Source: Minisyncoccota bacterium
Lineage (GTDB): Bacteria > Patescibacteriota > Minisyncoccia > Phycocordibacterales > UBA5272
DNA length: 64,000 nt
Assembly (NCBI GenBank): GCA_041651055.1
Contig: JBAZJW010000001.1
Location: 472,506-536,505, forward strand
Direction of reading: 5' to 3'
Position 1 is the stretch's first letter. Each line of letters opens with the position of its first letter. Made by a program: the position numbers and the translations under genes. Below the pieces are notes generated by a model. It was not told where the DNA came from. It searched no databases and saw nothing but the letters and a program-made list of their open reading frames with translations. Below are positions 70-59,446 of this stretch, piece by piece.

Positions 70-1515
70 TTATGGAAGACGATTAAAGAGTGGCTTCTCT
101 GGCATTGTACTGGAATGAATGCACTCGAGAATTTTGGCAGACGTTTTTGGAATAAATGAAGAAAGGTTTTCTGCAATTGTTTCTAACGAAATCAAACAAT
201 GCTCTATCATTTCTCTTCCTTTCTGAGCGTCTACCTTAACCACTTTAAATGGTTCATTCGTTGCGATATATTCATCAAGCATTCCAATCTCTTTCATAAT
301 ATCTTTAATTGCTGCGTTCGTATCGAAGTTGTGTATCTCTTTTCGGCTTCTAGCTTCTAGCTTCTCGCTTCGTACTTCATTTGCCGTGGCCATTTTCATG
401 ACACGACTCGTAAGGTTCCCAATACCATTTGCAAGATATGCTGTGTATGCCGTCTTAATAGATTCGATCGTAATATCGCCGTCTTCAAATGAAGGCACTT
501 CGTGGAGCAAAATAAAACGCAGCACATCTTCTGGACAATCAGTCACATCTTTAAACATTTCAAGAATATCAAATGGATTAATTACATTTCCAATAGACTT
601 ACTCATTTTCTGTCCACCGGAAATAATAAAACCATCGATAATAATATTCGTTGTATTTGGAATATCTGCTGCAAGCAGCATTGCCTGCCAAATAGCAGAC
701 TGTTGGCGAAGATTATCTTTTCCACAATACTGAATCACTTCACGAGATTCTCCTTGTGCCCAATATGTCTCAAAGTCTTTAGACTCTGGCCAATTTAATG
801 TAGAGATATATGAAGTGAGCGCGTCAAACCACACATACATCACATGATCATCATCCCCTGGCACGGGCACACCCCATGGCATTTTTTCTTTAAGACGTGA
901 AATAGAAAAATCTTCAAGACCTCTATCAAGAAAAGCTTTGATTTCATTGAAACGAAAATCTGGGATTACAAGTGATGGATTCTTTTCATAGAGCTCACGC
1001 AGTTTTCCTTCTAGTTTTGAGAATGCAAAGAAATAATTTTCTTCTTTAATAACCTCAATGGCACGGTTTGGATGAAGCAGGCACAGTCCGTGCTCTAGTT
1101 CACTGTCTGTTTTATATAATTCACAACCAACACAATACTTTGCCTCATATTCTTTTTTGTAAATATATCCATTTGCATCACATCTCTTCCACATCTCTTG
1201 CGCAGCTTTGATATGCTTCTCTTCTGACGTACGAATGAAATGTATCTCTGGGGAGATACCGAGCTTTGGATATAATTCCTTAAATCGCGCAGCGTTTCTA
1301 TCTACATATTCTTGTACTTCTATTCCTTCTTTTTCCGCTGCTTCCAAAATCTTCGTACCGTGTTCATCTGTTCCTGTATTAAAAAATACATCATACCCAA
1401 GCGATTTCTTGTATCGTGCGATTACGTCGGCACGAACAAATTCAAGAGCATGACCTAAGTGAGGCTCAGCGTTTACATACGGAAGTGTGGTGGTGATATA
1501 GAATGGTTTGTTCAT
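70..1515 (-). CDS. metG: Methionyl-tRNA synthetase (class I aaRS, minimal form)
   Basis: HIGH-type motif PYVNAEPHLGHA near the N-terminus. KMSKS motif present (GGQKMSKSIGN). Confidence 0.9.
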   Translation of the reverse strand: MNKPFYITTTLPYVNAEPHLGHALEFVRADVIARYKKSLGYDVFFNTGTDEHGTKILEAAEKEGIEVQEYVDRNAARFKELYPKLGISPEIHFIRTSEEKHIKAAQEMWKRCDANGYIYKKEYEAKYCVGCELYKTDSELEHGLCLLHPNRAIEVIKEENYFFAFSKLEGKLRELYEKNPSLVIPDFRFNEIKAFLDRGLEDFSISRLKEKMPWGVPVPGDDDHVMYVWFDALTSYISTLNWPESKDFETYWAQGESREVIQYCGKDNLRQQSAIWQAMLLAADIPNTTNIIIDGFIISGGQKMSKSIGNVINPFDILEMFKDVTDCPEDVLRFILLHEVPSFEDGDITIESIKTAYTAYLANGIGNLTSRVMKMATANEVRSEKLEARSRKEIHNFDTNAAIKDIMKEIGMLDEYIATNEPFKVVKVDAQKGREMIEHCLISLETIAENLSSFIPKTSAKILECIHSSTMPEKPLFNRLP

Positions 1516-34894: not shown

Positions 34895-35326
34895 GTGAGA
34901 AGTATAACATCCTCATTTCCAGCAGGCGCTGTAATTGGGAGCAAAACCAAAAGATATCACTACAATTTTCAAACAAAAAGACTGACTATCGGGGATGTTT
35001 TCCACAAGTTTCGTCTCGTCGCCACTCAACGAACTCACCTTGTCCTCACGGCATGATTTACTAATCAACCGCCGCTCGTGGTTTCACGCACAGGGGTCGC
35101 CTCTCCCGACTTGCTTGAGTACAAGCTTTGCTGGACTGCGATTTCAACAGGCCGAGTACGGTCTAAGAAATCGGGAGCGTACTGCTGTACTCGAGACCTA
35201 CGTCTTCTCGTCGAAGACTGCGGGCAACGATAAATCTTTTGCACTGCAGTTTCAACGGATTGATTACAATCCAAGAAACTGGTAGCCCGCGGTTCGACCC
35301 CCGATAGCCACTACAATTTTCTATAA

Positions 35327-35357
35327 CAAAAATCGCAAGCATGTCGCTTGCGATTTT
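35327..35357. terminator. Perfect hairpin downstream of tRNA-His
   Basis: aaaaatcgcaagc-atgt-cgcttgcgattttt. Confidence 0.6.
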
Positions 35358-35369
35358 TGTTTGAAATTG

Positions 35370-35441
35370 TGTGACTATCGGGGGTCGAACCCGAACTGAG
35401 GGCTCCACAAGCCCGCGTGCTACCATTACACTATAGTCACC
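35370..35441 (-). tRNA. tRNA-His (GTG)
   Basis: Cloverleaf with anticodon loop TTGTGGA, extra 5' G (G-1) and T-arm TCGGG-TTCGACC-CCCGA. No encoded CCA. Confidence 0.85.
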
Positions 35442-35605: not shown

Positions 35606-36133
35606 ATGATACGGAAAATAGTGGCGTTAACCGCAGTTCTTGCGGCGATGATCTGCCCTACTACTTCCAATGCGGGAGAAAAGGATTTCCCTTGGTGCAA
35701 GAGTATTGCGTACACCTTCTGGACACATTCGAAGCATCCAGGAGGAGATAGAAATGGTCGTCTCAACCAAGATAACGGGGGCATAGGCTTCAAATGTTTT
35801 CTCGAAAAAGAAAACTCCATGTTCCTCAGCATGGACGCTCTCGAGAATAGTCAATTCGGAAGCACAATTACCGCGGGCATCGGAAAGCAAATTGACCTGC
35901 TTAAGATATCGCGAGTAAGTATCTATGTTGGAGGGGAGTTAAGTCTGGTCAACTACGATGTTCCGAGAAAACATGAAGCAATTTTCGGAGTGATGCCAAG
36001 TCTCTATCGTGGCATTGGGTATTCCCTTCCGTATGGGTTTGGTATCGTTTCCTTCGAGGAAAAGCTTCTCCTTGGAGACATTCGACTTCGGTCGTGGGGA
36101 TGGCAATACAAGAAAAGTGTGAATATTTTCTGA
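35606..36133 (+). CDS. Hypothetical secreted protein
   Basis: 175 aa with a signal peptide. Followed by a terminator. Confidence 0.5.
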   Translation: MIRKIVALTAVLAAMICPTTSNAGEKDFPWCKSIAYTFWTHSKHPGGDRNGRLNQDNGGIGFKCFLEKENSMFLSMDALENSQFGSTITAGIGKQIDLLKISRVSIYVGGELSLVNYDVPRKHEAIFGVMPSLYRGIGYSLPYGFGIVSFEEKLLLGDIRLRSWGWQYKKSVNIF

Positions 36134-36149
36134 CGATGTTCATACTGCA

Positions 36150-36177
36150 AAGGCCACGTCTTGGACGTGGCCTTTTT
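36150..36177 (+). terminator. Intrinsic terminator
   Basis: aaggccacgtc-ttgg-acgtggcc followed by ttttt. Confidence 0.7.
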
Positions 36178-36192
36178 ATTTTTGATACAAGA

Positions 36193-36422
36193 GAACTTGG
36201 TCACAAAGTCTATTTTTGATCCGCCGGCTGGCGGACAAAAATATAAGACTTCGCGAAGTCGACTGGTAAATTAGTCGACACCTGTAGACGGCCCTATTTA
36301 AGTCCTACGGAAGTGACGTAGGCCATTCTAGGACTTGGTCACAAAGTCTATTTTTGAGTACAAAAATATAAGACTTCGCGACCCCTATTCAAGTCCTCAC
36401 GTATCGCACGCAGGTGCGATAC
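36193..36422. repeat. Two tandem copies (R1, R2) of a composite structured repeat downstream of tRNA-Leu
   Basis: Each copy begins with a partial tRNA-Leu T-arm copy (ggacttg / aacttgg), then gtcacaaagtctatttttg...caaaaatataagacttcgcga. R2 ends in the hairpin gtatcgcac-GCAG-gtgcgatac. R1 carries an extra gtcgac palindrome. Confidence 0.6.
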
Positions 36423-36427
36423 TTCCT

Positions 36428-36483
36428 GGGCACAAAATACAAAAAGCAAAGTCATATGACTTTGCTTTTTGTATTTTGTGCCC
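36428..36483. repeat. 56-bp perfect AT-rich palindrome abutting the tRNA-Leu 3' end
   Basis: gggcacaaaatacaaaaagcaaagtcatatgactttgctttttgtattttgtgccc. The conserved arm cacaaaatacaaaaag is shared with the palindromes at 38050 and 59578. Confidence 0.7.
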
Positions 36484-36562
36484 AGGAGAGGACTTGAACC
36501 TCCATGCCGTTGCCAGCGCTACCACCTCAAGGTAGTGCGTCTACCAGTTTCGCCACCTGGGC
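36479..36562 (-). tRNA. tRNA-Leu (GAG)
   Basis: Long variable arm, anticodon loop TTGAGGT, acceptor GCCCAGG/CCTGGGC. Confidence 0.85.
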
Positions 36563-36647
36563 ATATATCTATCTTTCTTCTCTTGAGGTATTGAAATACT
36601 AACACAAAAGAAGCCAAAACAAAACCCGCATTTCTGCGGGTTTTGTT

Positions 36648-37981: not shown

Positions 37982-38054
37982 GGGCGATTAGCTCAGTTGG
38001 TAGAGCAGCGCATTTACACTGCGAAGGTCAGAGGTTCGACCCCTCTATTGCCCA
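37982..38054 (+). tRNA. tRNA-Val (TAC)
   Basis: Cloverleaf with anticodon loop TTTACAC, acceptor GGGCGAT/ATTGCCC. Confidence 0.8.
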
Positions 38055-38105
38055 CAAAATACAAAAAGCACCATCTTTCGATGGTGCTTTTTGTATTTTG
38101 TGGGC
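38050..38105. repeat. 56-bp AT-rich palindrome abutting the tRNA-Val 3' end
   Basis: gcccacaaaatacaaaaagcacc-atctttcgat-ggtgctttttgtattttgtgggc. Confidence 0.7.
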
Positions 38106-38267
38106 AATAAGCAAATGACCTTCGTCACTTGCGTGAGGGGTCGAATACGGGTCGGAAAATCTTTTGTTTTGAGTGAAGCGAAAAACTGATTTTGTGACCG
38201 ACCCCCCTATTACTAAAAACCCTATCGTCTCTTTCAAAAATTTCTGCTAGTATACATACGTATCCAT

Positions 38268-38339
38268 GCCCCTGTAGTTAAATGGATATAACTGCGGACT
38301 TCTAAGCCGTTATTGCTGGTTCGATTCCAGCCGGGGGCA
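38268..38339 (+). tRNA. tRNA-Arg (TCT)
   Basis: Acceptor GCCCCTG/CGGGGGC (one G-U). Anticodon loop CTTCTAA. T-arm GCTGG-TTCGATT-CCAGC. Confidence 0.75.
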
Positions 38340-38426
38340 CAAAACGTTAAGAAAATCTTTTCTGCTAAAGATTTTTAGTTTTGTGTGCCGCAGTGATGTT
38401 TTGTTTTTATTGTCTTCCAGACAAAA

Positions 38427-38482
38427 ACAAAACCACGAGGCGGGCCGTCTACAGGTGTCGACTAATTTACCAGTCGACTTCG
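38427..38482. repeat. Inverted partial copies of repeat arms found near other tRNAs
   Basis: 38442-38482 is the reverse complement of the gtcgac-palindrome segment of R1 (36253-36293). 38427-38441 (aaaccacgaggcggg) is an inverted ccgccgctcgtggttt arm. Confidence 0.55.
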
Positions 38483-38579
38483 AGAGTACTTATGAGCAAC
38501 TCATACGAAGTATGATTAGTGCAATTAGTAACTCGTGACCAAAGTGTAAAGAAATCTCCCTTACGGGAGATTTCTATTT

Positions 38580-40535: not shown

Positions 40536-40742
40536 GAAGAACAGTTTACCGTTTTTTGGAAGAAAATTCTAGGGATTTGAGATGTGTGATTTTCCTGCAA
40601 ATTTCATGTCGCTGTCGCTGAACAAAAATGGCCCACCAATTTCTTGGTGGACACATTTTTATACGAGGATATTTGCGGAGGCATATCCATAGTCGCGAGT
40701 ACGCTCGCGATTTTGCGGAGGAGGTGAGATTCGGTTACAAAG

Positions 40743-40819
40743 TCTAGTTTTGTGAATACACAAAACAGAAGACTTCGCGACCCCTATTCTCATCTCGCGC
40801 AAGTGACGCAGGTCACTTG
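40743..40819. repeat. Copy R3 of the composite repeat, directly after the partial tRNA-Ser copy
   Basis: ggttacaaagtctagttttgtgaatacacaaaacagaagacttcgcgacccctattc, then the hairpin gcaagtgac-GCAG-gtcacttgc. The stem is compensated relative to R2; the loop is conserved. Confidence 0.6.
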
Positions 40820-40836
40820 CTACTGTCCCTCGCTGT

Positions 40837-40880
40837 GAATATAAAAAGCACAAGGTTGAAACCTTGTGCTTTTTATATTC
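40837..40880. repeat. 44-bp AT-rich palindrome
   Basis: gaatataaaaagcacaaggtt-gaaa-ccttgtgctttttatattc. Confidence 0.6.
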
Positions 40881-41010
40881 AAGCGGTGATGTCGGGTTAA
40901 GTGCCCACAGGGTCAACCCACATAAGGGTATTCTAGCATCTTTTACTTAGTGGATTCGAGGACAGTGGGTCGGGTCTTAATAGACAGAATAGACACTATA
41001 AAAAGAAGAG

Positions 41011-42135
41011 CTAATGTTTATGACCGTGTGTGCTTTCCGCATCAGATACCTTTCCATGAAGCATATATGAAGCAATAAGTGTTGTTATTGGAACGGCAAG
41101 AACTAGGCCAATACTACCAATTAAAATACGAACCACTTCTGTTGCAAATACTTCACTATTTAAAATAAAGAGAACTCCAACAGTCGAACTCTGTATAAGC
41201 AGCAGCAATGGAAGAGATGCTCCGACATATGCGATGGCCAGAGTATTTACCAAAGCACCAATATGCTCTCGACCAATACGTATTCCTCGCTTATAAACTT
41301 CTTTACGCGTCATATGCTTGCCAGCTCTAAACAACTCTTCTATCGCGATTGCTTGCCCTATTGCAATGTCATAGAGAACCCCAAGAAGTCCTATCATAAT
41401 CCCGCCGAACAAAAGCCCAACCATACTTATCACTCCACGACTATCTAGTGTAAGATAGGTGGCCTCCTCTGAGCTATATCCACTAAGATTTCCTGCGTGC
41501 ACCACACAGTATGCGGCGAGGCCTGCCATGATAACAGTGATAATCATGCCGACTACTGCGGCAGTAGTTGTTCTGTTAAAGCCGTGAGTAATATACGACC
41601 CAGCAACAATAATTAAAGAAGCCACACCAATACTTACCAGTACCGCATTGTATCCGCCGTAGATACCGGGAATAAGAAGATAGAAGATTAGGAAGAAGCT
41701 ACCTATCAAACTAGCCAATCCACGCACTCCTTGAATGCCACCGAAAACAAATATAAGAACTACAAAAGTAACGGCTAGCCACAAAAGAATATCGAGCCGG
41801 TACGGGTCAGCCACCGACCAGTAGTCAGAACCATCTAAATGATTACTTTGGTGTCGAGCATAAAAGATCTCCCCTTCTTTTAGTTGAATATAATCATTCT
41901 TAAAGGTTGCTGTCTTCCCCTGATCTTTACCGCTGATGACTTCTATTTTTATGGTTTGTGTTTGGCCTACGGTATCAGTTCCAGGAATAGTTGTTGTTCC
42001 ATGATCTAAAATTTGAACTACTTTAGCTTTTTCGAAAGTTTCAGTATCTGCTACAAGTGTTGCGTCTTGAGCAAATGACAAAGTAGGCATAAGAGTGAGA
42101 CTAAACAATGATAGGAAAAGTAGCTTCTTTAACAT
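41011..42135 (-). CDS. YibE/F-family membrane protein
   Basis: Signal peptide, soluble N-domain, then ~8 TM with YibE/F-like glycine-rich helices. Confidence 0.65.
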   Translation of the reverse strand: MLKKLLFLSLFSLTLMPTLSFAQDATLVADTETFEKAKVVQILDHGTTTIPGTDTVGQTQTIKIEVISGKDQGKTATFKNDYIQLKEGEIFYARHQSNHLDGSDYWSVADPYRLDILLWLAVTFVVLIFVFGGIQGVRGLASLIGSFFLIFYLLIPGIYGGYNAVLVSIGVASLIIVAGSYITHGFNRTTTAAVVGMIITVIMAGLAAYCVVHAGNLSGYSSEEATYLTLDSRGVISMVGLLFGGIMIGLLGVLYDIAIGQAIAIEELFRAGKHMTRKEVYKRGIRIGREHIGALVNTLAIAYVGASLPLLLLIQSSTVGVLFILNSEVFATEVVRILIGSIGLVLAVPITTLIASYMLHGKVSDAESTHGHKH

Positions 42136-42153
42136 AGTGTAAGTATACCAATC

Positions 42154-42585
42154 TTATTTTTTACTGCAGGCTTTACAAAGACCGAAGAACTCAAGCGAGT
42201 GAGAGTTAATGATAGAAAAGTTCTTTGAAGACTTAAGAACTTCTTTCTGAAGATTGGCCTGTTCACAGTGTTCAATATCTTCAATCTTCCCACATCTCTC
42301 ACATACGATGTGATGATGGTGGTGGTCTTCATGAAGAAATTCATAATAGGCAGCGGTGTCTTGGAGATTAATCTTTCCAACGATTTTTGAGGTTACAAAA
42401 TCCTCTAGCGCACGATAGAGCGTAACCTTGTCCATTACCTCTCCCATTTCCTTTTGTATCTCTCCTGCAGTTAAGGGTTTCTTGGAGCGACTAAGAAATG
42501 ATAGAAGTGCGATTCGCCCGGGTGTAATTCTGTACCCGTGCTCCCGCAATAACTCTTCGTGTCCCAAAGTGTCTTTAGATTTCAT
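42154..42585 (-). CDS. Fur-family metalloregulator
   Basis: Winged HTH, HHHHH and CxxC...CxxC metal sites. Confidence 0.8.
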   Translation of the reverse strand: MKSKDTLGHEELLREHGYRITPGRIALLSFLSRSKKPLTAGEIQKEMGEVMDKVTLYRALEDFVTSKIVGKINLQDTAAYYEFLHEDHHHHHIVCERCGKIEDIEHCEQANLQKEVLKSSKNFSIINSHSLEFFGLCKACSKK

Positions 42586-42670
42586 AGTTGCATTAGTATA
42601 CCACTAACGCAACTCTATTGCAATAGTAAGTTAGATGTTGTATATTCTATATGCAACTCATTTGTGTTAT

Positions 42671-43498
42671 ATGAAAATAGCATTCGTCGGAAAAGGAGGC
42701 AGTGGAAAAAGCTCCGTATCATGGCTAGCTGTTAAGACTATAGAAGATATAGGGTCTTCAGTCTTGGCTATTGATGCTGACCATAATATGGATCTTACTT
42801 CTAACTTAGGACTTGATCCTGAGACTACTCCTCTTATGCATAAAACTGAACAAGAGTTTATGGAGCAAGTAGGTGTTTCAAAAGTAAGCGGTGTACTTAA
42901 CAAAGACATAACCACTCTTCCTTCATTTACGACAGACCCTCAGGACTCATACACAGCGTCTATAGCTACATATGTGAGTGATAAAATTTCTCTTATCAAT
43001 ATCGGACTAGGAGCGCCTGATGTTATGTTTTCGGGTAAATGCGCTCACGGTCTATCTGGTCCGCTTAAATACTATCTTGGATTGCTCGATGAAAAGGACG
43101 ACTTTGTAGTAATCGACAGTGTTGCGGGTGCTGACATGCTTAATTACGGACTCTACGCAGGAATTGATGCAGTGATTGGGGTTGTGGAGCCACACAGAAA
43201 CAGCGTTAAAGTATTTGAGCAGATACAGGATATTTGCCGCAAGTCTTTGATTCCATGTTTTGCTGTTGTTAATAAACCGACAGATAATGAATTCTATAAA
43301 GACTTTGTTTCAAAGAATGGCGAGAAGATTTTAGGAGAAATTCCATTTGATGAAAATGTAATGTCTTATAACTACACAAGGGTACAAACAAAAACAAAAC
43401 AAGCTATGACTTCTGTATTAGAAAAGATTAAGCGCTTAAAGAAGAGGGGCAATCTTACAACTATCAAGAGTTTTCAAGATATGAAGACAAGTAAGTAG
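42671..43498 (+). CDS. ParA/MinD/CooC-family P-loop ATPase
   Basis: Deviant Walker A KIAFVGKGGSGKSS. Start taken at the internal Met of the longer ORF. Confidence 0.65.
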   Translation: MKIAFVGKGGSGKSSVSWLAVKTIEDIGSSVLAIDADHNMDLTSNLGLDPETTPLMHKTEQEFMEQVGVSKVSGVLNKDITTLPSFTTDPQDSYTASIATYVSDKISLINIGLGAPDVMFSGKCAHGLSGPLKYYLGLLDEKDDFVVIDSVAGADMLNYGLYAGIDAVIGVVEPHRNSVKVFEQIQDICRKSLIPCFAVVNKPTDNEFYKDFVSKNGEKILGEIPFDENVMSYNYTRVQTKTKQAMTSVLEKIKRLKKRGNLTTIKSFQDMKTSK

Positions 43499-43586
43499 TG
43501 CTCAATACGTTTTGTCTGCATTTGAATATGCAGGTAAAACGTCAGAGTGCTCCTTATCATCAATCCAACTTCATGGAGAAGTCATC

Positions 43587-43937
43587 ATGTCTTTGCCTTC
43601 AATCGCAACTGTCGATACCAAGAACCTCAAGCCCGAACAGCTGGAAGACCTGCTGTTTGAGGCCATCAAGAAAGACCTTCCCTTGGCGTTCGCCTGGTTC
43701 AAGAACTTGAGCCTGGGCGTCCACCACAAGGAAGACCCCGCGACGCCGCTCGCTTCCCAGATCAAACGTGTCGTTGCCGACGGCATGCGCCACGTTCTCG
43801 AGAAGAAGCTGTTTGACGGCAAGCGGATCGTGTTTGCGAACTGCTGCGACGTGATCGTTGATCCCCCGAAGGGCTTCAACGCCGTCCTGTTCCAGTTCGA
43901 GACACAGAATGGGAAGCTCAACTATGCCGACTGCTGA
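43587..43937 (+). CDS. Hypothetical protein, GC-rich cassette gene 1
   Basis: ~57% GC against a ~40% background. Start chosen at the ATG preceded by ggagaag. Confidence 0.5.
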   Translation: MSLPSIATVDTKNLKPEQLEDLLFEAIKKDLPLAFAWFKNLSLGVHHKEDPATPLASQIKRVVADGMRHVLEKKLFDGKRIVFANCCDVIVDPPKGFNAVLFQFETQNGKLNYADC

Positions 43938-44295
43938 GAGTTCGTTCAGCGCTTTCCTAGCCGAAAACGCGGATCATCTCCTCCTGCTTTGCCGAAAGGA
44001 AGGCTTTGCGTTCTCGGTGAAAGAAAGTTCGCGGTGCATAACCGTGCGGTGTACGCTGCCTGGGGGTCACGTCCGCTTCGTCATCTTTGACGATCATCGG
44101 ATTGAAAATCCTCACGGTGGCAAACCGCACGTGTGCAACCAATGGCACAAGGCGGTCGGCGACCCCATCTCGTACACGATGGGGAAAGACATGGCTGATG
44201 CTTCGCAGTTAGAAAGTGTGCTTCGTGCCACAGCTGTGATGTGTCTTACGCAAAGCGAAGCGTACAACACCATGAAGGAAACAATCTTCCAGTAG
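43924..44295 (+). CDS. Hypothetical protein, GC-rich cassette gene 2 (Rx4H HEPN-like motif)
   Basis: ATG overlaps the upstream stop (ATGCCGACTGCTGA). Contains DDHRIENPHGG. Followed by a terminator. Confidence 0.5.
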   Translation: MPTAESSFSAFLAENADHLLLLCRKEGFAFSVKESSRCITVRCTLPGGHVRFVIFDDHRIENPHGGKPHVCNQWHKAVGDPISYTMGKDMADASQLESVLRATAVMCLTQSEAYNTMKETIFQ

Positions 44296-44333
44296 TAATC
44301 TTCTTCTGCTGCAACAAGTCTCCTAATGTGGGA

Positions 44334-44362
44334 GCGGCCCGATTTCAGTCGGGCTTTTTTAT
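44334..44362 (+). terminator. Intrinsic terminator after the GC-rich cassette
   Basis: gcccga-tttcag-tcgggc followed by tttttt. Confidence 0.7.
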
Positions 44363-44386
44363 TGTTTTAAAAAGGTATATACCATT

Positions 44387-45067
44387 TTAGTAACTGGAAT
44401 ACTTATATCTTTCCTCTTCAGTTTCTTGAACAACGAAATCTACTCGCTTCGCACTTCCATCAAACATATTGTCATCAAGCGAATAGGTAACTGGTTTTCC
44501 TCGTGCTGAGTACTCGAGTGTCTTGAACAGATATCCAAGGAACGAGCCTGTATACCTGTATCTGCGAGTGCACCCAAGAATGATTTGGTCTATCTCGTCT
44601 TGAAATCCTTTCCATTTGTGAATCTGGTAATACTTATCTATCCATTCATCAACAACGCACCGTACCCATCTGACAATCTCATTGCTCGCTACCATGTTTC
44701 CTTTCTGGGATACTCTGACTAAGCGAATGATTATCTTGTTCCGTAGGTTTCTGTCATGCTCATCTTGCGGAGCAATAAATATGTAAAGCTTCTTCTGATA
44801 CTTTATTAAAATCTTATCTACCTCTTCTTGTTTGCTGTACTGCTTACGAACTCTCACTCTGTACCGTGCCCATCGCTTCGCATGTGATCTCTCGATTGAA
44901 GAAGTTATGGTATCCCAATCGATACTTCCGTCTTCGGTTCGTATGTTGTTTCGGAAATAATGATAGACAGTTTGTAGATGCTTAAATATCCAAGAGCTAC
45001 TGAATGTCTCTGGCTGTAGTTCTGCTAATTTTGAGTTGAGTTGTGCTATGGCTCTATCAAAATTCAT
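44387..45067 (-). CDS. Hypothetical protein
   Basis: 226-aa ORF inside the island. Confidence 0.5.
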   Translation of the reverse strand: MNFDRAIAQLNSKLAELQPETFSSSWIFKHLQTVYHYFRNNIRTEDGSIDWDTITSSIERSHAKRWARYRVRVRKQYSKQEEVDKILIKYQKKLYIFIAPQDEHDRNLRNKIIIRLVRVSQKGNMVASNEIVRWVRCVVDEWIDKYYQIHKWKGFQDEIDQIILGCTRRYRYTGSFLGYLFKTLEYSARGKPVTYSLDDNMFDGSAKRVDFVVQETEEERYKYSSY

Positions 45068-45076
45068 TTCTCATAA

Positions 45077-45373
45077 TTATCCTCTCACAAAGCCCATCAG
45101 TAAACCAAGTGCAATCATGCCACCAACACCGATAAGGATCCACTTCATAGTAAGTTTGAAATCTTTACTCATTCCTTGTGGCTGTTCAACAACGTGACCC
45201 GCAATGTGAACGTCTTTTGTTAAAGCCCATACGAGTGCAACTACCCAACCGATGAATGTCCACCCTAAGAAGATGTTTAACATGAGCACTGCCATTCTGT
45301 TTAACTTCTTGTTGTTAAACGCAATGATGGATGGAATAAAGTAGAGAACTGTGAGAATTATAAATAGAACCAT
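45077..45373 (-). CDS. Small membrane protein (3 TM)
   Basis: 98-aa hydrophobic ORF. Confidence 0.5.
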   Translation of the reverse strand: MVLFIILTVLYFIPSIIAFNNKKLNRMAVLMLNIFLGWTFIGWVVALVWALTKDVHIAGHVVEQPQGMSKDFKLTMKWILIGVGGMIALGLLMGFVRG

Positions 45374-45804
45374 AGTTATTTAATTAATTGATAACTGTGG
45401 TGAGATACAAAAAGCCCACCACGTGAGTGAAGTCTTGCGACTTCCATATCCGTTTCCAGATATGACCGGTAAAGGTAAATCCCACATGATGGGTTCTTTA
45501 TCCTTTACCGGGTTTTCGACCATACCTTACAAGAAATTCTCACAAGGGTTAGGTCTCTTTATTGATTTGTTGTTTTATTTTATCACTTTTAGTGACTTTT
45601 GCATCCTAGCTTAGCTTCAGGTGTTTGTGTAGTCTTGACTTCAACCAAGTGTGAGGCATACACTGGGAGCAGTTCAGAAGCAAAACGAAATACCTACCTA
45701 AACAGAAGAGGACGGAATACCCATTCCCAACCCTCGCTTGTTTGGGTGGGTATTTTTGTTTCTGACATACCTAAACGGATTTACTAATTAACAATATATT
45801 TGTT

Positions 45805-47133
45805 ATGAATAATCTAAACATTGTGTATGTTAGCGTAACAGACATTAAGCCCGCAGAATATAATCCGCGCAAGTGGAGCGAAACTCAAGCGGAAGCTCTT
45901 AAGGAGAGCATTACTAGATTCGGTATGGTGGACCCACTCATCTGTAATTTATTTGAGGGACGAAAGAATATTCTCATCGGAGGACATTTCCGTTTCAAGA
46001 TTGCACAGGACTTAGGATTCGCTGAAGTTCCTGTGGTGTATGTTTCAATCTCTGACCTTGCTAAGGAAAAGGAACTCAACCTTCGTCTTAATAAGAATGT
46101 CGGTGAGTTTGACTTCACTCTTCTCAAAGAGTTTGATGAAGCATTCCTTGAAGATATTGGTTTTGGTTCTTCTGAACTAGATACTATCTTCGATATAGAA
46201 ACCGTTGAAGAGGTATTTGATTTAGAAAAGGAACTTAAGAAGTTAGATATTAATGAAGTAAACGTAAAGAAAGGAGATATCTATGAACTCGATGGCTCAC
46301 GCCTTATGTGTGGTGATTCAACAGTAGACGGTCAGTGGGAAACACTTTGTAACGGTAACCTTGCAGACATGTGCTTCACAGACCCGCCATATATTTTGGA
46401 CTATCTTCATGGCAAGACTCGTAACGGTAAAGCAACAGAAGGATTCGGTACAAAGAAGAATCGCAGGTATTTAGAAACAGAATCATTACCAGATAATTTC
46501 ACTGACCTTTGGATGGAACAAATTGCTAAAGTGCAGAAGAAGGACTTCTCAATCATCGTGTATGAGAATCCAAAGAACCTGCGAACCATTTGGAACGCAC
46601 TTGAGAAACATTGGAAGTACCGCAATACGATTATCTGGCACTTACCAAACCGTATGCAGGGATTCTCTGCGAAGTACAAGTTCTTCAATAAGCATGACTT
46701 CGCTATTGTTGGATCAATTGGAAACGTGGAACTCAATCTTAAAGACGAGGACGATCTCTTCCAAACGGAATACGAGACAGCGCTCTTTGCAACGTCTGGC
46801 TCACCTTATTGGGAATCCTATGGTAAAGGCAAGAAGTACTGCCCAACGGATTTCATTGAGTACAAGTCATCGGATGCAAAATCTTCTGGGCAAGGAATAA
46901 TCTTCGGTACGAAACCACTGGAGATTCTCATCTCGTATATCAAAGTACTCACTAAACGCAATGACTTAATCCTAGAGCCGTTTGGAGGGTCAGGAAGCAC
47001 GTTAATTGCTTCAGTTAAGATGGGACGTCGCTGTTACATTATGGAAAAGTCACCAGTATACGCAGAAGTAATTCTCAAGCGCTGGGAGAAGGCCACTGGA
47101 AAGAAACCAGTTAAGGTAGAACTCCATGGCTAG
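45805..47133 (+). CDS. ParB-like N-terminal domain fused to an N6/N4 DNA methyltransferase (beta class)
   Basis: ParB/Srx block IGGHFRF. DPPY motif IV (CFTDPPYILDY) precedes FxGxG motif I (EPFGGSGSTLIA). Confidence 0.8.
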   Translation: MNNLNIVYVSVTDIKPAEYNPRKWSETQAEALKESITRFGMVDPLICNLFEGRKNILIGGHFRFKIAQDLGFAEVPVVYVSISDLAKEKELNLRLNKNVGEFDFTLLKEFDEAFLEDIGFGSSELDTIFDIETVEEVFDLEKELKKLDINEVNVKKGDIYELDGSRLMCGDSTVDGQWETLCNGNLADMCFTDPPYILDYLHGKTRNGKATEGFGTKKNRRYLETESLPDNFTDLWMEQIAKVQKKDFSIIVYENPKNLRTIWNALEKHWKYRNTIIWHLPNRMQGFSAKYKFFNKHDFAIVGSIGNVELNLKDEDDLFQTEYETALFATSGSPYWESYGKGKKYCPTDFIEYKSSDAKSSGQGIIFGTKPLEILISYIKVLTKRNDLILEPFGGSGSTLIASVKMGRRCYIMEKSPVYAEVILKRWEKATGKKPVKVELHG

Positions 47134-47788
47134 TCGTAGGGCTAGCAAAACACCTAAACAGAAAAAGTCTCCTCAATCTGAAACGGCGACCCAGAAAGAG
47201 AAACTACTTGTGCAGTTAACCAAAGTTCCCATTGTGCAGATTGCCACAGAGCGAGTCGGTATAGGACGCTCTACGTATTACGCGTGGCGAGATACCGATG
47301 AAGAGTTTCGAGAGCTAGCAGACAAGGCATTACGAGAAGGAAACTGTGTCATCAATGACTTGGCTGAATCTCGCCTTATTAAGAATATTCAAGAAGGCAA
47401 CAATACTTCGATTATCTTCTGGCTGAAGAACCACAGCAGTAACTACTCAGACCGTATCGTTCACCAAATGGAACTTCCTAAGTTTACAGCGGAAGACGCA
47501 AAAGAACTTGGGCAGACATTCCTTCGAGCATTTGGTGGGTCGCTTGCTAAAGTTCCTCAACATATCGTTGACGAGTTCCAGGACAAGAATTGGGAGTTAG
47601 ATGAAGATGAGCTTGAAACTCTTAACGAGCACATGAAGCAAGATGTGATTGTTCCGCTTACCGAGGAAGACATGGAAATGACTGATGAGGAAAATGAAGT
47701 TGTCGATCTTCCACCACCAAAGTCATCTCCAAATACGAAACGACGAGGTGTTAATTTGCAAGAGTTTGAGAAACGGAGGAAGAAGTAG
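47126..47788 (+). CDS. HTH DNA-binding protein, phage terminase-small-subunit-like
   Basis: HTH segment VQIATERVGIGRSTYYAWRD. Overlaps the MTase stop by 8 nt. Acidic C-terminus. Confidence 0.45.
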   Translation: MASRRASKTPKQKKSPQSETATQKEKLLVQLTKVPIVQIATERVGIGRSTYYAWRDTDEEFRELADKALREGNCVINDLAESRLIKNIQEGNNTSIIFWLKNHSSNYSDRIVHQMELPKFTAEDAKELGQTFLRAFGGSLAKVPQHIVDEFQDKNWELDEDELETLNEHMKQDVIVPLTEEDMEMTDEENEVVDLPPPKSSPNTKRRGVNLQEFEKRRKK

Positions 47789-47795
47789 ATAGAAT

Positions 47796-47818
47796 AAAAC
47801 CCACGTTACGTGGGTTTT
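47796..47818. terminator. Bidirectional hairpin between convergent genes
   Basis: aaaacccacgt-t-acgtgggtttt. Confidence 0.55.
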
Positions 47819-47850
47819 ATTCTTCAGACAATATGGTAGTAACTTGCATA

Positions 47851-48738
47851 CTACTCAGGTTGTGCTTGAGACTCTGCTTGTTTCTTAGCTACAGTCTTGT
47901 CGACAACCTCAAGTAAATGACTGAGCATTATTATTCTTGAGGCTGCTTCATGTGGTGGCAACTGATCTACGTTACCGTGACCAACAATGTTCTTACACCA
48001 TTGCATTGCACCCATAGCAACTAGCATAAATCCCTCTTTCTCATCCATTGGATTTGCAATCGCACTTCCATGGTATCGAGAGACATCTATTAGTGGGGTA
48101 TCTTTGTTGAATACTTGTGCCATAAGGTTACGTCCGAATTGACCATGTACCCCTGACCACCTCATGATTTCTGTTTCTGTAATTTCTCCAGCTTTCCTCA
48201 CTGACTCATTCATGTAGCCATCCTTGAATAAAGGGATAACATCAGACAATAATGTCTTATGCAGCCCGATGCCTTGTAGTGATTGAAGGATCACTGGGTT
48301 CGGAGGTGTTATCGCTGGACGTGTAATAGGTAATTCAAGTTCATCTATTTCCTTTCTCAGATCAATGCCGAACTCCAGGAGCTTCTCTTTGAACAAATCT
48401 GCTTCTGGTCTTAACCAAGGATTACCCTGTGAACGACATCTTATGATGCAATCTGCAAGAATGTCATTTATCAAACGCTTCAACGTTTTCGGATGTGCTT
48501 TATGTACAGCAGAAATGAAGTGAGTGAATTGCTTCTTTTTGCTCTGTCCTTCAAGGAAGTACTTCGATAGACCTTTGTTTTTTGCAATCTTCTGTAAACA
48601 AAACGGGCTACGAGACGTTGCAGGGAGTAATTTACCCAACATTTCTGCAAGATCTTGGATCACTTGCTGTTGTCTGGGCGAATAGCGTTTCCTTGATGGA
48701 ACTGCTTTTCTTTTCGCCTTTTTAATGACTTTCTTCAT
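47851..48738 (-). CDS. Hypothetical protein (possible Abi/Ymh-like C-terminal region)
   Basis: 295-aa ORF with a basic N-terminus. C-terminal block HGQFGRN...VGHGNVDQLPPHEAASRII. Confidence 0.45.
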   Translation of the reverse strand: MKKVIKKAKRKAVPSRKRYSPRQQQVIQDLAEMLGKLLPATSRSPFCLQKIAKNKGLSKYFLEGQSKKKQFTHFISAVHKAHPKTLKRLINDILADCIIRCRSQGNPWLRPEADLFKEKLLEFGIDLRKEIDELELPITRPAITPPNPVILQSLQGIGLHKTLLSDVIPLFKDGYMNESVRKAGEITETEIMRWSGVHGQFGRNLMAQVFNKDTPLIDVSRYHGSAIANPMDEKEGFMLVAMGAMQWCKNIVGHGNVDQLPPHEAASRIIMLSHLLEVVDKTVAKKQAESQAQPE

Positions 48739-48750
48739 AGGAAGAATTTA

Positions 48751-49536
48751 TTACTCTTCCGAAACATTAACTTCAGGCACCATCTCTTTGAGGTGTGCAT
48801 TAGAAAATGCTGTTAGCGCAGTACGGGCATCTTTCAAATCCCCATCAGCGATAGCATTCGATGTTGCTTCATTGCGTGGAATAATGAGCTTAATTCCGCC
48901 TTTGAAATTGAAAACGAAACTGTCGGTCTCTTCTGCTCTGACAGTGTTTGAAAGTGAGGGTGCTTTTTCTGTAACCTTATTTGGTGTTACAGTAGTCTCA
49001 GTTGGAATTACTTCACTTGCTCCTTGTAACTCTGATAAAACCAATATTTCGTTCTGCATCATTCCAGAGTATTCTGCTGATCTTACGAAATTTCTTGCTG
49101 CAGTATCTTTCGCCGCCGCTTCAATACCGTAGTCGTGTACTAAAAGGTTACCGAGTGTCTGAACTTCTGGCAACTTCTTACCTTTGAAGACCTCAACTAA
49201 TTCTCCATAGAGTTGAGGGGCAACGAACGCTTTACGTATCGCTTGAACTTTCGATGGTTCATCTCGCGGAAACGCTATCTCTTTTCCTAGTGGAGAAAGA
49301 GATAGTTTGCCGCTTTCCTGATTTATTAGGCCGAACTGTTTAGCAGAGCTCACACGACCGATAAAAGTCGAGTTGTTTACTGCCTTACCCATATGTGCGG
49401 CGACAGCATCACCAGATACTCTATTTCCACCCAGAGTATTTACGATACCGATAAACGTGATAACTTCCTCAAGGTCATAGCGGGGGTATAACCTACTTCT
49501 TGCCTTTGTTTCCTTTTCTTTTGGTGTATTTTCCAT
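48751..49536 (-). CDS. Hypothetical protein
   Basis: 261-aa ORF upstream of the 47851 gene, same strand with a 12-nt gap. Confidence 0.45.
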   Translation of the reverse strand: MENTPKEKETKARSRLYPRYDLEEVITFIGIVNTLGGNRVSGDAVAAHMGKAVNNSTFIGRVSSAKQFGLINQESGKLSLSPLGKEIAFPRDEPSKVQAIRKAFVAPQLYGELVEVFKGKKLPEVQTLGNLLVHDYGIEAAAKDTAARNFVRSAEYSGMMQNEILVLSELQGASEVIPTETTVTPNKVTEKAPSLSNTVRAEETDSFVFNFKGGIKLIIPRNEATSNAIADGDLKDARTALTAFSNAHLKEMVPEVNVSEE

Positions 49537-49763
49537 ATAAATTAACTTTTAGTGTGATTAACGGAGTTTGTGCCTCCTGTTTGATATCGTACCAAATAAA
49601 TGGAAGTAAAGTCAAGTGTTTGTGCAAGAACTTCTACCTGTTTTATAAATCCCTTATTTATCAAGCACTTATGTATAGTTATCCACATAGAAAGCAGTGA
49701 TTAGGAGTGGAATACAAAACCGTATATTACCTACTTGACTAGTCCAGGGCCCTGCGTCATTCA

Positions 49764-51098
49764 TTGGTGTATATGAGCAATACAGTACAGACACCATTTG
49801 GGACACCAAATAAGGAGGTTCTAGAACCCTTGAGGCTAAAATACTGCCTTTACGCACGCAAAAGCACCGAAGCCGAGGAAAGGCAGATGCTTTCGATAGA
49901 TTCACAAATAAAAGAGATGTTACTACTGGCTGAACGTGAAGGACTGGAGATAGTAGCCATGAAGCGAGAATCTCACTCCGCCAAGGAAACAGGACAACGA
50001 CCAGTGTTTAATGAAATCATCAACGAGATTAAAGAAGGTAAATATAATGGCATTCTTACATGGGCGCCTGATCGAATTTCCCGTAACGCAGGAGACTTAG
50101 GGAAAGTCGTAGACCTTATGGACAGAGGAACACTGAAAGAAATACGCACCTACGGGCAAAGCTTCAGTAATTCACCGAATGAAAAGTTCCTTCTCATGAT
50201 ACTCGGTTCTCAGGCAAAGCTTGAAAACGATAACCGAGGCATTAATGTGAAGCGTGGATTGCGCATGAGGGCAGAGATGGGGTTATGGTGTGGCAAGGCA
50301 CCGCTCGGCTACCTCAATCAGAAAGATATGGATAAGAAGTGTCAGGTATTAGTAGACCCACTACGCGCACCAATCATTAAGAAAATGCACGAGAGAGTTG
50401 CGTACGAAAAGTGGAGTGGAAGGAAGTTGTACAACTGGTTGCGATTTGAATGTAATTTCTACACAAGAGGAAACAAACCACTCACACTTGCAGGTGTATA
50501 CAGAACACTAGAAAATCCTTTTTACTACGGGGTGTTCGAGAGACCAAAAGGAAGTGGTGAATGGCATCAAGGAAAGCATCAACCCATCATTGACCAAGAG
50601 CTCTTTGAGAAAGCGAGAGCACAACTGAAACGTGACCAGATAGTTCGTGAGAGTAAAGAATTTGCATTCACTAAGATGTTTACCTGTGGTTACTGTAGTA
50701 GTGGCATCTCAGCAGAAGAGAAGTGGAAAGAGTTGAAAGGTGGAGGAGCAAACAGATACATCTACTATAGTTGTTCTCGGGCGAGAGATAGAAATTGTAA
50801 GAATAAGTATATTCGTGAAGAAGACTTGATACTGGAATTGTTAAAAATACTGGATGAGCTAGATATCAATGAACTTGGTATGAGACAGCGCCTCGAAGAA
50901 GAAATTGCCAGGTTCAATATATTTCAAAGGTCTGTACTTGGTGCAAAGGAAAAGTTGGAAACGAACAAGGAAACAGATATACGGAACTATGCGAAATATA
51001 TCCTTAAAGAAGGAACTACCGATGAAAAAAGACAGTTACTCGGTAATCTTAGAACAAGAATTATATATAAGGATAAAAAATTAGAGTTAACTAAATAA
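49764..51098 (+). CDS. Large serine recombinase (resolvase/invertase N-domain, recombinase domain and zinc ribbon)
   Basis: YARKSTEAEERQ...SIDSQ catalytic-Ser region. Recombinase-domain blocks GKAPLGY. CxxC...CxxC zinc ribbon. Confidence 0.85.
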   Translation: MVYMSNTVQTPFGTPNKEVLEPLRLKYCLYARKSTEAEERQMLSIDSQIKEMLLLAEREGLEIVAMKRESHSAKETGQRPVFNEIINEIKEGKYNGILTWAPDRISRNAGDLGKVVDLMDRGTLKEIRTYGQSFSNSPNEKFLLMILGSQAKLENDNRGINVKRGLRMRAEMGLWCGKAPLGYLNQKDMDKKCQVLVDPLRAPIIKKMHERVAYEKWSGRKLYNWLRFECNFYTRGNKPLTLAGVYRTLENPFYYGVFERPKGSGEWHQGKHQPIIDQELFEKARAQLKRDQIVRESKEFAFTKMFTCGYCSSGISAEEKWKELKGGGANRYIYYSCSRARDRNCKNKYIREEDLILELLKILDELDINELGMRQRLEEEIARFNIFQRSVLGAKEKLETNKETDIRNYAKYILKEGTTDEKRQLLGNLRTRIIYKDKKLELTK

Positions 51099-51127
51099 TC
51101 ATCTTTATTTTTTGTTATAATCTAGTC

Positions 51128-52198: not shown

Positions 52199-52626
52199 GA
52201 AAAGATACCAAGAGCATGACCATGGTTTATATTAAAACTTATCTCTCCTAATAAAATGACTCCCTCAGGGGTCTTAATATTCAAAAGATATATTCTCTTT
52301 GATTCCGAAATTCTTTTTGGGTGATGACCAGAGTATCCTTTTTGTTCTGACTTAAAAAGAGTGCTTATATTTTTATCCACATTGCTAATGTCAACATCCA
52401 AGGTTCCATAGTTCTGATCCCAACGTGCAGTAAAAAATGGCAGCATACCATCAAGTGGTTCAACCTTAAAAAGTACCAGTAATCCAGTATCTGATAATTT
52501 TTGAGATTCGTCTATTTTAAAAAGATAGTTTGAGCTAATAAATTCTTCCTTGAATTCAAGGTTTGACACCTTGTCGACCCTGAAGACATTCACTCCATCT
52601 TTTTTGAAGACATTGTCTTTTTGCAT
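52195..52626 (-). CDS. Hypothetical protein
   Basis: 143-aa ORF convergent with the upstream gene. AT-rich. Confidence 0.4.
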   Translation of the reverse strand: MQKDNVFKKDGVNVFRVDKVSNLEFKEEFISSNYLFKIDESQKLSDTGLLVLFKVEPLDGMLPFFTARWDQNYGTLDVDISNVDKNISTLFKSEQKGYSGHHPKRISESKRIYLLNIKTPEGVILLGEISFNINHGHALGIFS

Positions 52627-52650
52627 GTTTTTTTAATTTTACCACCCCCA

Positions 52651-52682
52651 GTACAAAGTGACCCACTATAGGGATAGTGGGT
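52651..52682 (-). terminator. Hairpin immediately downstream of tRNA-Ser
   Basis: agtgacccactat-aggg-atagtgggtcact. Confidence 0.55.
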
Positions 52683-52706
52683 CACTCCGATACTTAATTA
52701 TTTATG

Positions 52707-59356: not shown

Positions 59357-59446
59357 GCTATGTTCTCCGGGTTGTTAAAGGACTTAACCAGTATAGCATG
59401 AAAAATAGACTGTGTCAATAGCTTGCGAAGAGATCGGCTCTCGGCA

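Follow-up and report, generated by a model that had tools for sequence, protein, structure and literature searches.

A hairpin cassette behind tRNA genes of Patescibacteria, a possible tRNA-targeting insertion element

Classically, integrases that target tRNA genes are recognized by direct repeats of the tRNA 3' end beginning in the T-loop. Repeats of this kind also bound a family of short hairpin units, here called cassettes, in a stretch of 64,000 nucleotides (the window) from a Minisyncoccota bacterium of the Patescibacteria or candidate phyla radiation (CPR; assembly GCA_041651055.1, contig JBAZJW010000001.1, positions 472,506 to 536,505). The cassettes have an identical order at tRNA-Leu, tRNA-Val, and tRNA-Arg(GCG). 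Read on the tRNA strand, the tRNA 3' end, which comprises the T-loop (a), the 3' strand of the T-stem (b), and the 3' strand of the acceptor stem with the discriminator (c) and does not encode CCA, is followed by a first hairpin (H1), c', an A, a second hairpin (H2), G(U), b'a', the linker AAUAGGG, a structured body, and a closing direct copy of the tRNA 3' end. In all three cases c' and b'a' are the exact complements of tRNA nucleotides (nt) 65–73 and 54–64, respectively; together they form an antisense copy of nt 54–73 that is split at nt 64/65 by H2. With a size of approximately 150–250 bp the cassettes are non-coding and contain no open reading frame (ORF). They may represent a kind of tRNA-targeting insertion element that has apparently not been described before.

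The cassette fails at least one defining feature of each known family that could be tested. With the islands and prophages of the T-loop sublocation class that integrate into tRNA or transfer-messenger RNA (tmRNA) genes it shares the site at the 3' end of these genes, the intact tRNA, the direct repeat from the T-loop, the original 3' end displaced downstream (with its CCA in one cassette case), and tandem occupancy; the cassettes are bounded, as in this class, by direct copies of 8–22 nt that begin at C56/R57. However, they carry neither an integrase nor any other gene, and the sole recombinase of the window lies in a separate 12-kb element. Moreover, one cassette family serves at least 25 tRNAs, and to the direct repeat it adds an inverted target copy split by a conserved hairpin and a modular hairpin body.

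The attC sites of integrons and the forked hairpin attP(+) of the CTX phage likewise keep their structure while the stem sequence varies, and one strand is favored. Here, too, two inverted target-like copies can fold into a mimic of the target duplex with an extrahelical element (H2 in the cassette) on one arm. The R''/R' consensus of attC (RYYYAAC/GTTRRRY) is absent, however, and the cassette arms instead read GGGGTCGCG ... YGTGACC. There is no intI/attI context, no tyrosine recombinase was found in the 30 window ORFs scanned, and the cassettes stand singly behind tRNAs. Unlike in attC and CTX attP, the target is a tRNA gene and not attI or dif, and the direct-copy boundary lies at the inner rather than the outer end of the arm.

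Small, non-coding, hairpin-rich, and intergenic sequences near terminators are also known as miniature inverted-repeat transposable elements (MITEs), palindrome-associated transposable elements (PATEs) of the IS200/IS605 group, repetitive extragenic palindromes (REPs) with their composite forms BIME and REPIN, and Rickettsia palindromic elements, all of which vary in presence between relatives and can be nested or modular. The cassettes differ from all of these in being strictly tRNA-specific and co-oriented and in carrying target-derived antisense and sense segments in each copy. In contrast to MITEs, the cassette ends, H1 on the left and GTGAC on the right, are not inverted repeats, the duplication of 8–22 nt is tRNA-specific and of no fixed length, and copies on one contig differ in H1, H2, and often H3 (the third hairpin, in the body) rather than forming high-copy families of near-identical members. 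PATEs have strand-specific subterminal hairpins; in the cassette H3 is strand-specific and H1 and H2 are strand-symmetric. PATEs insert 3' of a fixed tetra- or pentanucleotide, with no duplication and with a Y1 transposase in the genome; the cassette target varies with the tRNA.

A complement to the insertion flank, with guide halves flanking a hairpin, is a feature in common with the guide-bearing mobile elements (exon- and intron-binding sites of group II introns, IS110 bridge RNA, the guide tetranucleotides of IS200/IS605, and TnpB omega-RNA). Unlike in these, both guide halves of the cassette are complementary to a single strand of an uninterrupted 20-nt target, a ribozyme core or associated protein gene is lacking, and the guide differs per copy with the neighboring tRNA. 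TIGR-Tas arrays of CPR bacteria contain 9-nt spacers that pair with opposite strands and are located beside Tas genes (PMC12045711). They were considered for their occurrence in CPR and rejected, as their architecture differs and no alternating edge/loop array or Tas (Nop-domain) gene was found near the cassettes. Finally, the primer-binding sites of retroviruses and long terminal repeat elements are 18–20-nt complements to a specific tRNA 3' end that also start in the T-loop region. The cassette complement, however, is made without CCA (...TTTTG and not TGG precedes c'), is split by H2, and lies in cis beside the tRNA gene; the 30 window ORFs that were scanned yielded no reverse transcriptase.

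A literature search on tRNA palindromes, repeats, and non-coding RNAs of CPR/Patescibacteria, on miniature tRNA-integrating elements, and on tRNA-like downstream elements found no description, although an earlier account is still possible; for archaea it yielded loose analogues only, namely mobile tRNA introns and disrupted tRNA genes.

Anatomy of the cassettes in the window

ARAGORN predicted six tRNA genes in the window (His, Leu, Val, Arg-UCU, Ser, Arg-GCG). Complete cassettes are found at tRNA-Leu, tRNA-Val, and tRNA-Arg(GCG), an orphaned copy once belonged to tRNA-Ser, an older tandem unit (R1) adjoins the Leu cassette (R2), and variants follow tRNA-His and tRNA-Arg(UCU). An earlier reading of the window, made without database searches (the sequence-only reading), had reported composite structured repeats fused to partial tRNA 3'-end copies. 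The family is genuine: ACAAAGTCTANTTTTG occurs without mismatch at 36203, 36341, and 40737, and AAGACTTCGCGACCCCTATTC is exact at 36370 and 40769, where none would be expected by chance. The tRNA-derived stretches in front of the units measure 8 nt (Leu R2), 20 nt (Ser), and 17 nt (Arg-GCG) and start at C56/R57, which agrees with the proposal that divergence from the tRNA begins in the T-loop. What does not hold is a simple fusion, because the units are located directly downstream of full tRNA genes and contain both inverted and direct copies of their 3' ends.

The Leu locus illustrates this organization. The gene for tRNA-Leu(GAG) (36478–36562, − strand; ARAGORN, Rfam) encodes no CCA, and its 3' 20 nt, including the discriminator, are copied in the cassette. 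H1 (36424–36487) is a perfect, terminator-like palindrome of 32+32 nt, CACAAAATACAAAAAG-variable-CTTTTTGTATTTTGTG (repeat finder match I3, 100% complementary, and fold), whose arms reach into the 3' acceptor strand (36478–36487) and its complement c' (36424–36432). H2 (36401–36422, − strand), with a 9-bp stem and a CUGC tetraloop, separates the complement of tRNA nt 65 from that of nt 64. It is followed on the − strand by b'a' (36388–36398), the exact reverse complement of nt 54–64 (GAGGACTTGAA; inverted match score 11 at +79..89), by the linker AAUAGGG with H3 (GGUCGCGAAGUCUU...AAGACUUUGUGAC; 36338–36387), in which G·U pairs exist only on the − strand, i.e., that of the tRNA, and by a direct copy of nt 56–63 (CAAGTCCT; 36330–36337). 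The T-loop segment of the antisense copy is a reverse complement (ACTTGAA for Leu) and not a direct copy, by which a tandem degenerate tRNA duplicate was ruled out. This anatomy on the tRNA strand also explains the "cccctattc" motif of the sequence-only reading and the sequences flanking its GCAG hairpin as inverted tRNA-derived segments; in R2 these flanks (ttcaagtcctc/tcctgggca) had not been recognized as the tRNA 3' end. Similarly overlooked were the perfect H1 palindromes with arms of 29–32 nt that join the units to the real tRNAs (I3, I4, I6), the complete cassette behind tRNA-Val, and the variants at tRNA-Arg(UCU) and tRNA-His.

The cassette at 38056–38213 (+; I1, I4, I9) adjoins tRNA-Val(UAC) (37982–38055, +; ARAGORN), which also lacks an encoded CCA; a 140-nt inverted match (I1) relates the region after this tRNA to the Leu unit. 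Its parts are H1 (38046–38109), c' (38101–38109), H2 with the loop CTTC, i.e., CUUC (38111–38132), b'a' (38135–38145), H3 (38146–38199), and the direct copy GACCCCCCTATTAC (38200–38213). Behind the equally CCA-less tRNA-Arg(GCG) (59629–59701, −; ARAGORN), the cassette occupies 59437–59628 (−; I6) with H1 at 59576–59638, c' at 59576–59584, H2 at 59553–59574 (GAAAAGCGC CUGC GCGCUUUUC), b'a' at 59540–59550, a body of a different type (type B, 59454–59539), and a direct copy at 59437–59453. The closing direct copies, all beginning at C56, thus comprise 8 nt at Leu, 14 nt at Val, and 17 nt at Arg(GCG). The body is either H3, with the arms GGUCGCG...UGUGACC, or type B as at Arg(GCG).

H1 has the form CAAAAUACAAAAAG-variable stem-CUUUUUGUAUUUUG and constitutes a perfect palindrome that runs from the tRNA acceptor strand through the hairpin and back. 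By its sequence form it is a bidirectional, terminator-like palindrome that agrees, e.g., in AAAAAGCAAAGUC-AUAU-GACUUUGCUUUUUGUAUUUUG, with an intrinsic terminator (a stem containing G+C between an A-tract and a U-tract); it was missing from the output of a simple terminator scan, presumably since pairing within the long stem hides the T-run. When folded with RNAfold, the tRNA 3' end is predicted to pair with c' and b'a', forming a three-way junction that has H1 and H2 as protruding arms and H3 behind it (−108.1 kcal/mol, z-score −19.0).

The GCAG-loop hairpins (CUGC on the tRNA strand) at 36401–36422, 40799–40820, and 59553–59574 have stems that are unrelated in sequence but complementary in each case. 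Among 61 copies of H2 the stem has 9 bp in 59, the loop is CUGC in 55, the preceding nucleotide is A in 57, and a G follows. The covariation claimed by the sequence-only reading is borne out by 45 distinct sequences, in which 98.8% of the cells are paired and each of the nine pairs is changed on both sides (140 cells); no shuffle (0/500) or slid register comes close. Selection on an RNA structure, one of the two forms that this reading had considered, finds less backing in these data: the 545 pairs comprise 530 Watson–Crick pairs, 6 GU, 7 AC, and 2 mismatches, which is unusual for a selected RNA stem. Wobble pairs are thus nearly absent and strand-symmetric, and H2 is unlike the usual RNA stem that drifts via G·U intermediates. 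H1, including its c:c' pairing, is likewise perfect. These findings suggest a constraint or a templated correction that acts equally on both strands.

H3 behaves differently. In all 53 distinct modules it folds better on the tRNA strand (−23.5 vs. −15.1 kcal/mol), where 149 G·U pairs are formed as against 6 on the opposite strand. At positions outside the search pattern G·T outnumbers A·C by 32 to 5, and arm position 7 is G·T in a further 43 of 49 cases. Other body types follow the same trend, more weakly (12/14, p = 0.0035). The structured strand of H3, be it RNA or single-stranded DNA, is therefore that of the tRNA; the sequence-only reading had been made on the + strand, and likely the opposite strand is the structured one.

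The remaining units of this region depart from the standard order. R1 (36192–36329, −), an older tandem unit, lacks H1 and c', has a different hairpin (36304–36322) at the H2 position, and contains a degenerate a' segment; its direct copy is CAAGTTCT (36192–36199). Two additional hairpin modules are inserted in its H3, one of which, a 52-nt sub-module (GGGCCGTCTACAGGTGTCGACTAATTTACCAGTCGACTTCG; 36243–36294), recurs with 92% identity at 38442–38493 in the Arg(UCU) variant. As it is inserted in two otherwise different cassettes, it suggests that small hairpin modules nest inside cassettes. The Arg(UCU) variant (38341–38539, +; I2) follows its tRNA (38268–38340) with an H1-like hairpin and only 4 nt of c', contains body modules in common with the Arg(GCG) cassette and R1, and ends in TCGTGACC. 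Behind tRNA-His (35369–35440), the variant at 34983–35368 (−; I15, I25, D13) consists of a hairpin (35325–35361), an uninterrupted inverted copy of the tRNA 3' end (35291–35311; also found by the repeat finder, I15), a long modular body, and a 12-nt direct copy (34983–34994).

Distribution, target matching, and turnover

By homologues of its ribosomal protein L19, the organism of the window falls among Paceibacteria-like CPR bacteria. A scan of one genome per species with the H1 flank pattern alone yielded 30 loci. About 24 of these belong to CPR genomes (Saccharibacteria, Paceibacterota, Taylorbacteria, Nomurabacteria), and here H1 abuts a tRNA, in one instance a tmRNA, and is followed by c', H2, b'a', body, and direct copy; the six matches outside CPR resemble ordinary terminators. 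In metagenomes the H3-arm pattern alone retrieved 93 stretches, which together with the window and the earlier loci gave 96 non-redundant ones. Approximately 19 are G+C-rich chance matches within coding DNA and approximately 77 are cassettes of full architecture beside at least 25 different anticodons; the lone tmRNA case stems from the H1 scan. The element spans two CPR classes. Copies elsewhere without tRNA association or covariation would have spoken against the sequence-only reading, but the approximately 77 further metagenome copies all have tRNA-derived flanks. No tRNA was called upstream of 15 copies, most of which belong to tandem arrays, stand at the end of a contig, or follow the decayed 3' fragment of a tRNA; Rfam revealed no other RNA upstream of them. 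Rfam searches of the window at the gathering threshold, of 36100–36600 at E-values up to 10, and of eleven loci returned only tRNA, tmRNA, and LOOT, the sub-threshold matches on H1 being miRNA-like noise. Neither viral contigs (H1 and H3 patterns, 0 matches) nor phage and plasmid collections (distant blastn of the R2 unit) contained a match. In the collections searched, the cassettes are restricted to CPR, and the element is real, widespread, and apparently undescribed.

The target-derived segments match the adjoining tRNA better than other tRNAs. Identity to the own tRNA is 0.84 for b'a' (vs. 0.62 to others), 0.71 for c' (vs. 0.35), and 0.78 for the direct copy (vs. 0.48), in which nt 56–63 are conserved at about 90% and nt 64–70 at about 60%. 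In CPR loci that had been fetched for containing the element, 64 of 128 distinct tRNA genes have an inverted copy at +35 to +130, compared to 8 of 128 in a control with the 3' end of a different tRNA. Such a copy accompanies 61 of the 109 genes without CCA and 3 of the 19 with an encoded CCA. Even where both differ from the tRNA, e.g., in L014, b'a' and the direct copy co-vary with each other. In a subfamily at L032 (Arg-GCG), L070 (Arg-CCU), L051 (Leu-GAG), and L122/L099 (Leu-UAG), the c' position reads TTTTGC[GA]GTATT[AG]G and has no match to the tRNA acceptor strand, so complementarity of c' is not obligatory; related tRNAs in this subfamily have nearly the same H1.

Comparison of four genomes, those of the window, L031, L032, and L037, whose L19 proteins are about 90% identical, revealed extensive turnover: five of the six orthologous tRNAs differ in presence or module type. 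The tRNA-Leu site is filled in the window, L031, and L037, each time with completely different H1, H2, and H3, and empty in L032–L036. In L031 the cassette and the direct copy AAGCTCTCCTGGGCA are followed by the terminator hairpin CCGCGAAAGCGG, which in L032–L036 stands directly after tRNA-Leu. What distinguishes the filled from the empty site is therefore the cassette together with a duplicated segment that extends from the T-loop to the end of the tRNA. The tRNA-Ser site holds a cassette in L037 but none in L031 and L032, the body at Arg(GCG) is of type B in the window and L031 and of type A in L032 and L037, and among the four genomes only the window has a complete cassette at tRNA-Val. Tandem units are present in the window (R1/R2), L045, L099, L111, and L122. 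In L070 the displaced direct copy keeps the CCA, whereas the tRNA beside H1 has none. Modules are shuffled at conserved anchors. Filled and empty sites, swapped modules, and tandem units of this kind characterize DNA that has been inserted and can be exchanged.

L032 (10550–10643) and L037 (10506–10612) additionally contain a pseudo-fragment, located about 55 nt upstream of the actual tRNA-Leu, that is not present in the window. It consists of a direct copy of tRNA nt 1–19 and a fold-back, the reverse complement of nt 10–28, and is a 5'-side counterpart of the direct and inverted copies on the 3' side.

Explanations of the cassette

Tentatively, we regard the units as a non-autonomous, non-coding insertion cassette that is specific for the 3' ends of tRNA and tmRNA genes of CPR/Patescibacteria. 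Insertion would be site-specific, in the region from the T-loop to the 3' end, and might proceed via a folded single strand of tRNA polarity, either single-stranded DNA or read-through RNA. The antisense segment could pair with the tRNA 3' end or with the direct copy of the cassette itself, and the resulting three-way junction would present H2, and then H3, to a putative trans-acting enzyme. The complementarity of H1, c', and H2 might be upheld by templated correction within the palindromes (template switching at quasipalindromes) or because a DNA hairpin is selected for, and the mosaic modules may arise by recombination at the anchors tRNA, A-H2-G, TCGAA-TAGGGGTCG, and GTGACC with the direct copy. 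Since the cassette would bring its own, replacement terminator in the form of H1, we infer that the tRNA is not harmed.

Several observations weigh against such an insertion cassette. No transposase, integrase, or reverse transcriptase was found in or consistently beside the cassettes (30 window ORFs scanned), an unrelated serine-recombinase island aside, and we know of no mechanism that rewrites tRNA-specific segments at each newly colonized tRNA. Deletion between direct repeats can likewise produce a pattern of filled and empty sites. No near-identical full-length copies were seen within one genome; the modules are mosaic, and there is no sign of a recent transposition burst. The occupancy figures are biased upward, as the loci were selected for holding the element. 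Finally, the G·U bias of H3 and the invariable co-orientation with a strongly transcribed gene fit an expressed RNA with a host function equally well.

CPR genomes measure about 1 Mb or less, yet about half of the CCA-less tRNA genes in the element-selected loci carry a cassette, which would be either a parasite that thrives remarkably well at the safest sites of a streamlined genome or a so far unrecognized layer of tRNA biogenesis in a large, mostly uncultured branch of the bacteria. As an insertion element, its combination of split antisense target copy, terminator, and direct copy could reveal a new type of insertion-site recognition by a folded single strand or a guide. Independent of their origin, the cassettes are practical markers for tRNA-linked genome plasticity, prophage attachment sites, and strain typing in CPR metagenomes, and annotators should not mistake the perfect palindromes and tRNA fragments behind tRNA genes of CPR bacteria for artefacts of assembly.

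The main rival, possible but doubtful, is a host-useful RNA domain within the tRNA transcription unit. A read-through 3' trailer would fold with its antisense segment onto the 3' half of the tRNA or onto its own direct copy, in the latter case mimicking an acceptor/T minihelix in which H2 replaces the D and anticodon arms. The junction could be a substrate or sensor for enzymes of processing, quality control, or modification, e.g., RNase III, RNase P, or RNase Z, and the cassettes would be inherited, homogenized by gene conversion, and often lost. Consistent with this are the better folding of H3 and the other bodies on the tRNA strand with G·U at conserved positions, the very stable predicted junction, the conserved linkers and CUGC loop, the covariation of b'a' with the direct copy even away from the tRNA sequence (e.g., in L014), the occurrence in two CPR classes at most CCA-less tRNAs, and the lack of a burst-like family of identical copies. 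However, H1, which has the form of a strong intrinsic terminator, stands between the tRNA and this domain, and both H2 and H1 are nearly free of G·U. A host function also fits poorly with a domain that is dispensable and highly variable between genomes of about 90% L19 identity, whose direct copy is often decayed in its acceptor part (identity about 0.6 at nt 64–70), and whose c' mismatches its tRNA in one subfamily.

Alternatively, the insertion cassette might be self-targeting and bear its own guide. The 20-nt antisense, split around a CUGC hairpin that would bind a protein, would then pair with the 3' end of the tRNA gene or transcript and direct insertion by a host or phage enzyme, the guide being re-templated for each target. 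We consider this rather unlikely; if true, it would define a class of nucleic-acid-guided, gene-free mobile elements confined to CPR bacteria.

According to a third explanation, essentially the integrase idea of the sequence-only reading, the units are scars of integrase-borne islands or prophages, i.e., attR remnants of repeated integration and deletion at tRNA genes. The direct repeats starting in the T-loop, the tmRNA as an additional target, and CPR proviruses with a serine integrase that do sit at tRNA 3' ends are all in line with it. We nevertheless judge it very unlikely, because random deletion would not yield an ordered architecture whose linkers and hairpins recur at at least 25 anticodons and across phyla. 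Furthermore, no tyrosine integrase is associated with the units, elements with a serine integrase join at the very tRNA 3' end with the motif TATCGG.GTGACCC and without H1-c'-H2-b'a', the element in the window interrupts a pre-existing cassette instead of having created one, and searches of viral contigs, phages, and plasmids turned up no cassette pattern.

No mobile element at all would be needed if the inverted and direct copies were by-products of replication template switching at terminator palindromes (DUP-INV-DUP). Formally, abc-H1-c'b'a'-H3-abc is indeed a duplication, an inverted copy, and a duplication, the palindromes are perfect and strand-symmetric, and tRNA-His has a simple, uninterrupted fold-back copy. 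But independent events cannot give a common H2 position, common linkers, the CUGC loop, and common H3 sequences over many loci and lineages. These conserved modules of non-tRNA origin largely refute pure template switching, which has become highly improbable and could survive only as a process that perfects palindromes. A small antisense RNA gene convergent with the tRNA on the + strand, which would include the tRNA 3' end in sense orientation and stop right after it at the bidirectional H1, and for which the + strand also folds stably (−101.2 kcal/mol), has the least chance of all and was rejected for the strand asymmetry of H3, which on this strand loses its wobble pairs (6 vs. 149) and is less stable in 53/53 modules, while promoter-like sites are no commoner than in shuffled sequence and the upstream neighbor is arbitrary (a terminator or the next gene).

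The serine-recombinase element and other features of the window

The orphaned cassette, R3 of the sequence-only reading, is located at 40714–40881 (−), and its former partner tRNA-Ser(UGA) is now found 12 kb away (52706–52794, −). It comprises a perfect 20-nt direct copy of tRNA-Ser (40714–40733), H3 (40734–40784), decayed b'a' (40787–40796), H2 (40799–40820), decayed c' (40823–40835), and H1 (40836–40881). The sequence-only reading had let a repeat unit begin after the 20-nt copy; this copy is the closing direct copy of the cassette, and the interval of 12 kb is a separate element. The 3' flank of the orphan (40690–40713; AAATCGCGAGCGTACTCGCGAC...TATGGATATGCCTCCGCA) equals the native 3' flank of tRNA-Ser in L031. 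Together with the junctions of the interval (40882–52705), this shows that a serine-recombinase element entered a site at which a cassette was already present and now separates its H1 from tRNA-Ser. The interval was also considered as an autonomous, full-length form of the cassette, which was ruled out accordingly, since the element has its own attP-like inverted motifs and split the cassette from its tRNA. No other long-range tRNA repeat was detected in the fetched loci. The orphan has retained an intact H2, H3, and direct copy, whereas its c' and b'a' have decayed; the perfection of these two segments may thus depend on adjacency to the tRNA.

Besides a large serine recombinase (49764–51098, +; Resolvase, Recombinase, and Zn_ribbon domains), the element encodes a ParB-methylase, a LOOT RNA, and other genes. 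The recombinase has 33 relatives in IMG/VR proviruses, and in 12 of these loci the gene is faced by a tRNA (Ser, Asp, Glu, Asn, Trp, Gln) with its 3' end; TATCGG.GTGACCC or AGCGACCC follows as a conserved motif at a distance of about 20 nt from the tRNA end. Judging by these features, it looks like a member of a CPR provirus family of serine integrases that targets tRNA 3' ends. From the junctions in the window an attP can be reconstructed whose outer motifs are inverted, GTGGGCAC-N18|N20-GTGACCCAC. These motifs (52640–52680 and 40882–40930) resemble the base arms of H3, GGGGTCGC and GTGACC, in sequence and polarity, which could link the cassettes to the serine-recombinase family; the match is too short to interpret, and the GTGACC/GCGACCC motif common to H3 arms and serine-integrase junctions was not counted as evidence for the same reason.

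The LOOT RNA of the element (Rfam RF03000, 92 bits, full length; 45429–45555, −) is located upstream of the gene for the ParB-N6 methylase and adjoins a small membrane protein gene (45077–45373), which is annotated as Imm_superinfect in a near-identical contig (L039). Outside the element, the window encodes an isoleucyl-tRNA synthetase of 1147 aa (5386–8829, −) with a His_Phos_1 (histidine-phosphatase) domain inserted at residues 504–657, within the catalytic domain.

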